Source: Candidatus Kuenenia stuttgartensis
GTDB taxonomy: Bacteria > Planctomycetota > Brocadiia > Brocadiales > Brocadiaceae
Assembly (NCBI RefSeq): GCF_900232105.1
Contig: NZ_LT934425.1
Span: 3,360,001 to 3,392,000, forward strand
Direction of reading: 5' to 3'
Length of the DNA stretch: 32,000 nt
The notes below the pieces were generated by a model. It searched no databases, was not told the origin of the DNA, and saw only the letters and a program-made list of their open reading frames with translations. This document shows, piece by piece, positions 14,631 through 22,776 of this stretch (positions within the stretch are counted from its first letter, which is position 1; every line of letters starts with the position of its first letter). A program made the translations under genes and the position numbers.

Positions 14631-15788
14631 TTACATAATTACCAGTTCCGCATGCAATGCGCCGGCTTTTTTAATGGCCTGGAATATCGAGATGAGGTCC
14701 CTTGGGGTTACGCCCAATACATTAAGTGCACGCGCAACGTCGGAAATAGAGACGCCTTCCTGCAGTACGGTCAATCTGCTTTTTTCTTCGCTTACCTGTA
14801 TATCCGTGCGTGCCATATCCCTTGTTTCACCTGCACCCAGCATATTTGGCTGTGAAACCTCCTTTTCTTCCTTGATCGTTATACTGAGGTTTCCATGGGC
14901 AACTGCAACCGTGGATATTCTTACATGCTGGTCTGCAACAATGGTGCCGGTGCGTTCATTAATAATTATCTTAGCGACGCTGTCGGTTTTAATGTAAAGT
15001 TCTTCCAGGGTAGAGATAAATTTTACTATAGTCTCATCGGACTGAAACCCCTGCGGAGGTCTTATATTGATAACCGCCGCATCAACCGCAACTGAAGAAT
15101 TTGGATAAATATTATTAATAAGCTCTGTTACCCTTGTGGAGGTGGTGAAATCAGGGTCTCTCAGCACAATATTCAGTGCCTGCCCCTTCAAAAAGGTGGT
15201 GTGAATCTCCTTTTCAACGATCGCTCCGTTTGAAATATGGGCGGTAGTGGATATGTTTTTCCTGACAGACTGTGCATCGCCTTTGATGCTGTAACCGCCT
15301 ACGGTAAGCGCGCCCTGAGCTACGGCATACACTTCATTATCAGCGCCCTGCAATGCGGTCTGAAGCAGCACGCCGCCTTCCAGACTTTTACAGTCACCAA
15401 TGGAAGAAAGCGTTATGTCCAGCTTATCGCCCGGCCTTGCAAATGCAGGGATATTCGTGGTGACCATGACCACCGCGGTGTTTTTGGAAAAGAAGTCTTT
15501 TTCATCCATTAGCACCCCCAGTTTTTCAAATATATTTACTGCCATTTGGCTGGTAAGTTTAAAGATTTGACTGTTATCGCCTGTTCCCTGAAGTCCGATA
15601 ACTATGCCATATCCGTAAAGCTGGTTTTCACGCACGCCCTGAACATACGCAATATCTTTAATTCTGACTGCGGCCTGTACGTGATGTACAAAGAGGCTTA
15701 TCAGTGTTGTGCCTGCGATAATAAAAGACGTTATAACACACTTCAACATAAACCTTATTGTAAACTGTTTTTTTCCCATAGCATTCAC
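14631..15788 (-). CDS. flgI: flagellar P-ring protein FlgI
   Basis: Signal peptide followed by RIKDIAYVQGVRENQLYGYGIVIGLQGTGD. C-terminus is ISDVARALNVLGVTPRDLISIFQAIKKAGALHAELVIM. Confidence 0.95.
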   Translation of the reverse strand: MNAMGKKQFTIRFMLKCVITSFIIAGTTLISLFVHHVQAAVRIKDIAYVQGVRENQLYGYGIVIGLQGTGDNSQIFKLTSQMAVNIFEKLGVLMDEKDFFSKNTAVVMVTTNIPAFARPGDKLDITLSSIGDCKSLEGGVLLQTALQGADNEVYAVAQGALTVGGYSIKGDAQSVRKNISTTAHISNGAIVEKEIHTTFLKGQALNIVLRDPDFTTSTRVTELINNIYPNSSVAVDAAVINIRPPQGFQSDETIVKFISTLEELYIKTDSVAKIIINERTGTIVADQHVRISTVAVAHGNLSITIKEEKEVSQPNMLGAGETRDMARTDIQVSEEKSRLTVLQEGVSISDVARALNVLGVTPRDLISIFQAIKKAGALHAELVIM

Positions 15789-15842
15789 CGTAAGTTGTTA
15801 ATGGATAATTTGTCTTTCTGTGTTTTATTAAATCTGTATAAT

Positions 15843-16142
15843 CGTAACACTTTAGTTTTTTGAAAAATTCCCGTTATAGAAAAAATACCATGTAGCCCCG
15901 TCAGGGGCGGTCTGTTTGTAGCGCAATAAAATTCAATAAGGTAAATAGCTCCGTAGGAGCGGCCTGTCCGTATTCAGGCAGACCTGTTTAATATGGATTT
16001 ACAAGAGACAGGTCGCTCCTAATTGCAGAGACAGGTTTCAAACCTGTCTCTACGATCTGTTATAATATTCTATTTTGCTACAAACAGGCTGCTCCTACGG
16101 AGCTTATAGGTAATACATTTTTCAAAAAACTAAAGTGTTACG
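15843..16142. mobile_element. 300-bp MITE-like element with perfect 26-bp terminal inverted repeats and a 6-bp TATAAT target-site duplication
   Basis: cgtaacactttagttttttgaaaaat (15843..15868) is the exact reverse complement of 16117..16142. TATAAT flanks both ends (15837..15842 and 16143..16148). The interior has nested palindromes, for example gagacaggtttcaaacctgtctc, and contains no ORF. Confidence 0.8.
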
Positions 16143-16199
16143 TATAATCTGTGGCTTTTTTTATTAATTTAGGATTTTAAATCGTGCTTCGTAACTAGC

Positions 16200-16820
16200 T
16201 TAAAATGGCGATACAAATTCCTTCAGGCGATAAAACCAGCCCCGTTTGGCGGCATTTGTCAAAAAACCTTTGCCTTCAAGGCTTATACTGGCATTTGCAA
16301 TCGAGCTTGATTGAATTACATTATCCACACTTACATCGATTGGCCGTATGATCCCTGATACCTTTATATTGTATTTTTCCTTATTAATATCCACCTCTCT
16401 GTTCCCTTCAATAATAAGATTCCCATTTGATAATATTTCCGTTACCACAGCGGTGATTTCCAATTGAAGGCTGCGGCTGCTGTCGTATTGCCCCGTACCG
16501 CCAAAAGTGTGCTCAGTTTGTGATTTTACATTGGGTAAATAGTCTTGCAATGCCCCTAATTTCTTGGAAAAATCTGAAGCGTCCACATTTATGTTATGGC
16601 TTGTGCTTTGGTCTGCGCTGGAATCTTCTTTTCCGGTAATTGCCGTTGACTCATTTATCGTGACCGTCACAATGTCGCCGATACGCATTGCCCTGTTGTC
16701 ATTATAAAGGTTTGTATTTAACGTAATGCGTTTTTGCCAGAGAGATTCTCCCATAGCATCGGTTACGAATGCAATACAAGTGAAACATGCAATAAGATAG
16801 GGAATAGTTTTCTTTTTCAT
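16200..16820 (-). CDS. flgH: flagellar L-ring lipoprotein FlgH
   Basis: N-terminal signal sequence with Cys. SLWQ...LYNDNRAMRIGDIVTVTINE and GNLIIEGNREV are FlgH hallmarks. Confidence 0.9.
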   Translation of the reverse strand: MKKKTIPYLIACFTCIAFVTDAMGESLWQKRITLNTNLYNDNRAMRIGDIVTVTINESTAITGKEDSSADQSTSHNINVDASDFSKKLGALQDYLPNVKSQTEHTFGGTGQYDSSRSLQLEITAVVTEILSNGNLIIEGNREVDINKEKYNIKVSGIIRPIDVSVDNVIQSSSIANASISLEGKGFLTNAAKRGWFYRLKEFVSPF

Positions 16821-16870: not shown

Positions 16871-16890
16871 GGGCGAATAATTATTCGCCC
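16871..16890. repeat. perfect 20-bp palindrome gggcgaataattattcgccc in the flgA-flgH junction
   Basis: Self-complementary. It overlaps the flgA stop codon by 1 nt. Confidence 0.8.
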
Positions 16891-17909
16891 TAAAGGATTA
16901 TCTTCACGGTACAATCATCCTGCACTTCGCCGTATAATTCCTTTTTTGTATCTAAATTCATAACCTTAATCGCCCGTCCTTTGTAACCGTCTTCTTTCGC
17001 AACTCCCTTTGTGAGAATACTAAGGTTGCCGATTTTTACAAGAATCTTGACGAGTTCGCCCTTTTTTATCACTGCGGGGTCATCTACCATGTTTTGCGTA
17101 AGGGGTTTGCCGGGAGGAATGGTATATAAGACACGTTTCCCCAAAAGAGGTTCTACACTGTCAATGGTAGTAAACCCTGGCATGCTTGTTGTTTCGATAC
17201 GTTTTATACAAATATCCTTAGTGGTTAAAATATCGTTTCTGTTGATTTTCCTGTTGGCGACTACGATTTCTTCATAGCGCCGTATAGTAAAATACATTGG
17301 TATTTTATGATATTGTTTCTCATCAAGATAAATCCGTACCACTACCTGAACCCTGCCGCTGCTTTTGTTTGCATTTACCTGTGAAACCTCTATGCGCATA
17401 ATTCCTCCGCCCAGTGGCAGCATTATATCGTTTGGAGGCCTTTCGGCTTCGACAACGATTTCTTCATTTCTCTCAGAGTATGCAAGCTTTGTGATGACAA
17501 ACTCTTTTGCGGTTTGTAAAATCTCGTCGCCGGTAATGGTGAATGATTCTACGGATATCATGGTAAAATCATTCCTGCCAAACGAGACTTTATTGGGGTT
17601 TATTCCTGCGTCCAGCATACGTGAAGCTATAATATTCTTTTCTATTTTTCTGACGTTGCCCGGCCACGGAGTGTTTCCGATAAATACGTTATGCGCTCTT
17701 TTTAAAAGGTCTGCGTCACTGCATGACAGGTCTGCAATATCGCCAAGGGTAACTTCCTTTTCGGGAAGTGATACGGATTCTTTCAACTCGACCGTAATCT
17801 GTTGTCCAAAGGATACAGAAACGATTGCAAACATTATGAATATTATGAATATCCCCCCCTTAGCCCCCCCCAGAGGGAGGGGAATTATCCCTCGTCTTTT
17901 GTCCCTCAT
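16890..17909 (-). CDS. flgA: flagellar P-ring assembly chaperone FlgA
   Basis: C-terminal SAF-like region VIKKGELVKILVKIGNLSILTKGVAKEDGYKGRAIKVMN. It sits in the flgA position between flgG and flgH. GAGGGG lies 6 nt upstream of ATG 17909. Confidence 0.85.
   Translation of the reverse strand: MRDKRRGIIPLPLGGAKGGIFIIFIMFAIVSVSFGQQITVELKESVSLPEKEVTLGDIADLSCSDADLLKRAHNVFIGNTPWPGNVRKIEKNIIASRMLDAGINPNKVSFGRNDFTMISVESFTITGDEILQTAKEFVITKLAYSERNEEIVVEAERPPNDIMLPLGGGIMRIEVSQVNANKSSGRVQVVVRIYLDEKQYHKIPMYFTIRRYEEIVVANRKINRNDILTTKDICIKRIETTSMPGFTTIDSVEPLLGKRVLYTIPPGKPLTQNMVDDPAVIKKGELVKILVKIGNLSILTKGVAKEDGYKGRAIKVMNLDTKKELYGEVQDDCTVKIIL
17852..17886. repeat. C-run/G-run short repeat, copy inside the flgA 5' coding region
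   Basis: tcccccccttagcccccccccagagggaggggaatt is nearly identical to the reverse complement of 24609..24641. Confidence 0.8.
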
Positions 17910-22653: not shown

Positions 22654-22701
22654 GATTTACGATTTACGATTTTTTTATCTGTGTAATCTATGCAATCTGT
22701 G
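22654..22701. repeat. tandem 7-mers (GATTTAC x2.5) followed by three 9-mers (WWATCTRTG)
   Basis: gatttac gatttac gattttt, then ttatctgtg taatctatg caatctgtg. This lies directly 5' of the flgE SD on the minus strand. Confidence 0.85.
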
Positions 22702-22776
22702 GTTTCTTTATATCTTCCATTTTGACTCCGCGCCTATGGATGATATCCCGTCGCCCGAATCAGTTTCGGTTTCTCC

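Follow-up and report, generated by a model that had tools for sequence, protein, structure and literature searches.

A 298-bp MITE with IS66-type ends in the flgH–flgI spacer of Kuenenia stuttgartiensis

Results

The flgH–flgI spacer and the element within it

The window, that is, the whole stretch of 32,000 nucleotides analysed here, covers positions 3,360,001 to 3,392,000 of the closed PacBio genome of K. stuttgartiensis MBR1 (4,406,153 bp, 41% G+C). Positions below refer to the window unless they are given as genome positions. The flg genes around the spacer lie on the minus strand, so that flgH is upstream of flgI, and the features of the region are as follows, listed in the direction of the genes.

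16890–17909, minus strand: flgA
16200–16820, minus strand: flgH, the upstream gene, L-ring protein of 206 aa (PF02107, E = 2.8e-47)
16142–16155, minus strand: flgH-proximal half of a split 9-nt tandem tract, sense GCCACAGATTATAC
16142–16149, no strand: right copy of the target-site duplication GTATAATC, perfect 8-bp direct repeat
16121–16148, plus strand: hybrid sigma-70-like site, –35 TTCAAA from the right terminal inverted repeat (TIR) and –10 TATAAT from the duplicated target (pattern scan only)
16117–16141, minus strand: right TIR, complement of the left TIR
16037–16066, plus strand: sigma-70-like site, TTCAAA, 18 nt, TATAAT, with TG before it (pattern scan only)
16025–16053, no strand: central palindrome of 29 nt, GCAGAGACAGGTTTCAAACCTGTCTCTAC, found stand-alone as a repeat unit as well
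15844–16141, no strand: MITE of 298 bp, non-coding, with IS66-type ends
15844–15868, plus strand: left TIR, GTAACACTTTAGTTTTTTGAAAAAT, perfect complement of 16117–16141
15836–15843, no strand: left copy of the target-site duplication GTATAATC, perfect 8-bp direct repeat
15829–15843, minus strand: flgI-proximal half of the split 9-nt tandem tract, sense GATTATACAGATTTA
14631–15788, minus strand: flgI, the downstream gene, P-ring protein (PF02119, E = 3.1e-125)

FlgI has 385 aa when read from GTG and 382 aa from ATG (first base 15779). Between the stop of flgH and the GTG of flgI (15789–16199), the spacer has the 411 nt given in a preliminary description of this DNA, and 420 nt when it is measured to the ATG annotated in other assemblies. 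The nearest relatives of FlgI come from Kuenenia genomes, and a protein identical to FlgH is found in many public assemblies. Both genes are intact and under purifying selection: with K. hertensis used to polarise the changes, the codon changes on the K. stuttgartiensis branch are 23 synonymous against 3 non-synonymous ones in flgI and 10 against 1 in flgH. The excess of synonymous changes in flgI argues against a loss of its function. Many flagellar genes look degraded in MBR1 according to its genome paper (PMC5854607), and for this reason present-day selection on the flg operon may be weak.

The element was initially described as a 300-bp MITE with perfect 26-bp TIRs and a 6-bp TATAAT duplication. 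Its existence stands, while its limits had to be redrawn. The two 26-nt arms (15843–15868 and 16117–16142) are indeed 100% complementary, but a genome-wide arm search found C, T, G or A as the outermost arm base among other copies. Since this base varies between copies, the true ends lie at 15844 and 16141, which leaves a 298-bp element with perfect 25-bp TIRs starting with GTAAC. In the same way TATAAT turned out to be the core of the target duplication, the full length of which is 8 bp. The largest ORFs inside the element would encode 24 and 28 aa, so there is no coding capacity and no transposase gene. An Rfam search of the region returned no match, and neither did a plasmid search with the element as query.

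Empty sites in sister lineages and fixation in the species

The flgH–flgI spacers of three sister lineages were compared with that of K. stuttgartiensis:

Kuenenia sp. Bin_40: FlgI identity 97%, spacer 119 nt, element absent
K. hertensis: FlgI identity 87%, spacer 93 nt, element absent
Third sister lineage: FlgI identity 84%, spacer 107 nt, element absent

Each of the eight distinct public K. stuttgartiensis assemblies covering the site, among them the closed CSTR1 genome, contains the element, with 99.9–100% identity over 801–1601 bp. The element is therefore fixed in the species and not strain-polymorphic. The comparison proposed earlier, a search for strains with an empty site, thus has a divided outcome, with three sister lineages empty and none of the eight K. 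stuttgartiensis assemblies. The same applies to the claim of a recent insertion: it is younger than the split of the sister species, yet it is fixed and essentially identical in all assemblies examined. Since K. stuttgartiensis strains share >99% nucleotide identity (PMC7709395), fixation by descent requires no selection. Metagenome scans gave 0 matches to the predicted empty junction and likewise 0 to the filled-junction control, though the filled junction exists in JGI contigs; with the control having failed, the negative for the empty junction carries no weight.

Assemblies made from short reads behave peculiarly at this place. Many short-read Kuenenia contigs end inside the MITE, and at its edge two turn out to be chimeras, of which one continues into the flank of the copy at genome position 1469878. 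In one MAG 155 bp are missing from the interior of the MITE (window 15957–16111), a deletion that could be genuine or could have arisen as an artefact of the palindrome.

The insertion splits a tract that reads, on the sense strand, as a run of 9-nt units (CACAGATTN). When the element and one copy of the duplication are removed from the window, CCACAGATTATACAGATTT is obtained; the empty site of Bin_40 reads CCACAGATTACACAGATTACACAGATTT on the sense strand. This comparison supports the earlier proposal that a short tract of tandem repeats reappears once the element is taken out. The AATCTGT-type tract noted then is also real, and a similar one is found upstream of flgE at about 22676–22705. The target tract is one of 26 loci in the genome with a dispersed repeat of 9-nt tandem units, AACCACAGATTNCACAGATT(NCACAGATT)AAAAAA, compared with about 0–1 per Mb in a shuffled-sequence control, and the copy near flgE precedes the start of this gene by 73 nt. 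Like it, about half of the copies stand 44–180 nt ahead of an ORF on the same strand, and GAAATAC-type 7-mers precede some of the copies. K. hertensis and the third lineage have no such 9-nt tract in their flgI spacers, so it is not a conserved regulator of flgI.

A family of copies and its interior units

A search of the genome for other copies, suggested in the preliminary description, found 36 full-length relatives of the 298-bp element with 70–99% identity, in addition to partial copies. The TIR search, allowing up to 4 mismatches, detected 439 TIR-like ends that form 122 adjacent left-right pairs with size classes of 137, 151, 189, 222, 248–256, 276 and 298 bp. Perfect 8-bp duplications surround about 50 TIR-bounded pairs genome-wide and are present at 17 of the 24 close copies. 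Fifteen copies with 92–99% identity make up the 298-bp subfamily, and the flgH–flgI copy is the closest of all to the consensus of this subfamily (6 differences); its nearest relative, at genome position 1469878, is 99.3% identical to it. These two properties place the flgH–flgI copy among the youngest of the family. By a crude ORF call, long ORFs contain none of the 24 close copies, whose neighbouring ORFs are co-directional in 15 cases, divergent in 6 and convergent in 3. All 15 related genomes searched, which belong to the same family, contained matches to the MITE.

Inside, the MITE is a mosaic built from small palindromic repeats that recur elsewhere in the genome. The central 29-nt palindrome (GTAGAGACAGGTTTSAAACCTGTCTCTAC) has 34 genome matches, 16 of them outside TIR-bounded elements, and is found stand-alone many times in other Brocadiaceae genomes, so to judge by its distribution it is like an independent REP-type unit. 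A 20-nt interior module, GCTCCGTAGGAGCGGCCTGT, has 105 genome matches, 43 of which are outside TIR-bounded elements.

A diverged subfamily of 250–270 bp shows a different kind of behavior: the same 8-mer, AATAATTC, is always found on both flanks (genome positions 92799, 197287, 334010, 995643, 1426344, 1433323, 2191618, 2321760, 4034329 and 4145324), and several of these copies adjoin the IS4-DruA element. This subfamily is probably nested in, or targets, a larger repeat rather than being inserted at random.

An IS66-family element with the same ends

An autonomous element bearing these TIRs, for which a search had also been suggested, does exist. An IS66-family element of 2368 bp is present in three intact copies and an interrupted one; identity among the four is at least 99.9%, and perfect 8-bp duplications flank each of them. 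Its ends, GTAACACTTTAGTTCTTTGAAAAAT, share 24 of 25 bases with those of the MITE. The transposase has 512 aa and matches the curated IS66 model NF033517 with 243.5 bits by hmmscan and 244.1–247.0 bits by genome search (cut-off 180 bits); it also matches PF03050 (E = 1.3e-36) and the zf-IS66 zinc finger. The only other ORF of the element, upstream of the transposase gene, encodes 293 aa with a DruA/Mom-like PF14236 domain (E = 3e-39). No tnpA or tnpB was found in the element, which for this reason resembles the ISBst12-type organisation lacking these genes, with an extra module. Between its ends the MITE is not similar to the element, so that the ends are all the two have in common, and an origin of the MITE as an internal-deletion derivative was rejected on this ground. 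Two other IS66 lineages of the genome were rejected as partners because their ends are different (GTAACTATTCAGCG and GTAACCGTTCAC).

The 2368-bp element is the likely mobiliser of the MITE, where the argument for mobilisation by its transposase is one of end identity and of that only. Close homologues of this transposase were found in two of the 15 related family genomes, a count that has to be read with the frequent loss of IS copies from draft assemblies in mind, whereas the MITE has matches in every one. One of the two homologue-bearing genomes contains several transposase copies, most of them partial or interrupted by stops. The interrupted copy in MBR1 (genome 830583–835016) is split by an element of the IS1634 family, which has 20 copies in MBR1 and none in other strains according to the CSTR1 comparison paper (PMC7709395).

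The DruA/Mom-like PF14236 module has 33 tblastn matches at about 30 loci and is tied to three transposase families in the MBR1 genome. It forms a separate upstream ORF in the IS66-family element and is fused to the N-terminus of an IS4/Tn5-type transposase of 768 aa, present in at least 10 copies, and of an ISAs1-type transposase of 460 aa. Such loci are found at genome positions 3684893–3687260, 545892–548281 and about 4040500–4042541.

Predicted RNA structure and promoter-like sites

The element is a nested palindrome, as noticed earlier, and its RNA in the sense of the flg genes is predicted to fold into one long hairpin of –122.6 kcal/mol (z = –12). The prediction for the opposite strand is –132.4 kcal/mol (z = –14.7). 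The expectation of a very long hairpin in any flgH–flgI co-transcript is thus borne out at the level of predicted folding. Across 24 copies 98% of the predicted pairs are kept, and double changes occur in only 3 pairs; the copies are too young for such covariation to reveal selection for structure. A gene for RNase III is present in the genome.

It had also been suggested that the element could supply a new promoter for flgI. The scans gave no support for this: no sigma-70, sigma-54 or sigma-28 pattern in the element or spacer faces flgI. Both sigma-70-like sites of the plus strand, the hybrid one included, face antisense into flgH, no sigma-70-like site was found on the minus strand of the element or spacer, and no sigma-54 or sigma-28 motifs were found in the spacers of this genome and the three relatives; promoter rules of Planctomycetota are poorly known, however, so a genuine flgI promoter may escape scans of this kind. 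As no promoter-like site faces flgI, this gene most likely depends on read-through from flgH, in which case the hairpin would belong to the mRNA.

Discussion

By sequence criteria the element between flgH and flgI is a MITE throughout, with ends and duplication of the IS66-family type. It is 298 bp long (under ∼600 bp), lacks a transposase gene, is bounded by TIRs and a duplication of fixed length and has dispersed copies; an autonomous element with the same ends is found in the same genome, and an occupied orthologous site can be set against empty ones. Perfect TIRs, the 8-bp duplication, the copies and the IS with the same ends also support the original proposal that a transposase inserted a non-autonomous element here. 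Ends starting with GTAA together with an 8-bp duplication are reportedly given as hallmarks of IS66 by Han et al. in 2001 and Gourbeyre et al. in 2010. Within the IS66 family, both the MITE and its partner resemble the ISBst12 group and ISDge4 in their GTAAC ends and 8-bp duplication, and the partner belongs to the family also by its transposase, which passes the cut-off of the IS66 model. The MITE differs in having no transposase and shares with the partner nothing more than the 25-bp ends. Canonical members of the IS66 group have tnpA and tnpB upstream of tnpC, whereas the partner lacks both and has the PF14236 ORF instead. A comparable case is ISDge4 of Deinococcus geothermalis, an IS66-family element without tnpA and tnpB that has an 8-bp duplication and ends of the GTAAC/GTGAC type (PMC12898284).

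Anatomy, copy family, partner IS, empty sister sites, fixation, non-coding nature and the predicted hairpin are documented directly, and we consider it very probable that the element is a MITE mobilised in trans by the TnpC-type DDE transposase of the 2368-bp IS66-family IS, and that its insertion was tolerated and near neutral. The transposase would recognise the 25-bp ends starting with GTAAC, and its staggered cut of 8 bp would produce the GTATAATC duplication. The insertion would have gone into the short tract of 9-nt tandem repeats, at a point 54 nt ahead of the flgI ATG, after K. stuttgartiensis had separated from sister Kuenenia and before the sequenced strains diverged, and would then have become fixed. 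With flgI presumably lacking a promoter of its own and being read through from flgH, the element would be transcribed as a hairpin of about 300 nt within the operon mRNA, a plausible substrate of RNase III. Even so, the insertion would act as a tolerated and nearly neutral one and not as a switch.

The preliminary description saw a possible uncoupling of L-ring and P-ring expression, and fixation could be read along these lines: the hairpin or its cleavage would uncouple flgI from flgH, or the antisense sites would lower flgH expression, and the element would have been fixed through reduced flagellar output. All sampled strains do carry the element, its predicted hairpin is very stable, RNase III is encoded, and of the two promoter-like sites directed antisense into flgH one is composed of the TIR and the duplicated TATAAT. 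Effects of this kind are known from the Correia elements of Neisseria (PMC2649163; PMC10969869), and the degraded flagellar genes reported for MBR1 (PMC5854607) would agree with a reduced output. However, descent alone is expected to fix the element among strains that are >99% identical (PMC7709395), flgH and flgI remain intact with mostly synonymous changes, and the location of 15 of the 24 close copies between co-directional ORFs, some only 6–60 nt from both, fits a general tolerance of such insertions and not a special role of this one. We therefore regard a regulatory insertion as unlikely. The specific version, in which splitting of the lineage-specific 9-nt tract, present also ahead of flgE and about 25 other genes, an RNase III-type hairpin of about 300 nt and antisense promoter-like sites rewired the L-ring/P-ring ratio and led to fixation of a non-neutral insertion, appears quite improbable.

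Another possibility is that a REP/BIME-like cluster of palindromes was spread by other means, such as a Y1 REP-associated transposase or recombination, and that the likeness to IS66 ends is a coincidence. The interior of the MITE does resemble REP/BIME in its short, GC-rich palindromes, which are scattered alone as well, as both the 29-nt (16 of 34 matches) and the 20-nt unit (43 of 105) occur outside TIR-bounded elements. What differs is the MITE as a whole, a unit with long TIRs, an 8-bp target duplication and clean empty sites. A coincidence is hard to reconcile with 24 of 25 end bases being the same as in an IS66-family element and with perfect 8-bp duplications at both MITEs and IS, and the clean empty sites in relatives indicate that the whole 298 bp together with 8 bp arrived as one unit. 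To our knowledge, REP elements make no target duplications. Such an origin is thus very improbable. Finally, that the 300 bp are a conserved structured spacer, which the preliminary description had set against its own reading, or an assembly artefact, finds an argument in the strong predicted structure only and is refuted by dozens of copies elsewhere in the genome, by orthologous spacers of three sister lineages without the 300 bp and by the presence of the element in the closed PacBio genome and in independent assemblies, with no match to any Rfam family.

The mobilised and tolerated MITE that we favor has its closest functional analogues in Chunjie and the Correia elements, and it belongs to neither. 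Correia elements (CREE) are about 100–160 bp long and duplicate TA, whereas the Kuenenia element with its 298 bp, 8-bp duplication and IS66-type GTAAC ends falls outside the Correia definition. Short, TIR-bounded and non-coding, CREE of Neisseria are co-transcribed with neighbouring genes, their hairpins are cleaved by RNase III, and their ends can create promoters (PMC2649163; PMC10969869). They may serve as a functional model of what the flgH–flgI copy could do, for which the indications here are pattern and fold predictions. Chunjie (2008, cited in PMC10969869) is, as far as it is described there, likewise a bacterial MITE that was active recently and has TIRs and direct repeats; its copies, of variable size, are many and intergenic, and one lies between the genes of an operon. 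It differs in its TIRs and presumed transposase family; its operon insertion is a tolerated one, and for the Kuenenia element co-transcription is predicted from the sequence.

Our search of the literature found no paper that links Kuenenia with MITEs and no description of IS66-ended MITEs or of MITEs in anammox bacteria, and both IS66 and Planctomycetota go unmentioned in a review of prokaryotic MITEs from 2024. For this reason the family as a whole merits a short note. The flgH–flgI element offers a textbook case, in which ends, duplication, partner and empty site are all documented. It accounts for a spacer of 411 nt against 93–119 nt in relatives, and it accounts for the breaks and chimeras of short-read Kuenenia assemblies at this site. 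The flgH–flgI copy itself is clean, ordinary selfish DNA of the kind that fills this genome; what this particular copy adds, and all that it adds, is a candidate natural experiment on how a flagellar operon tolerates a long hairpin within it.
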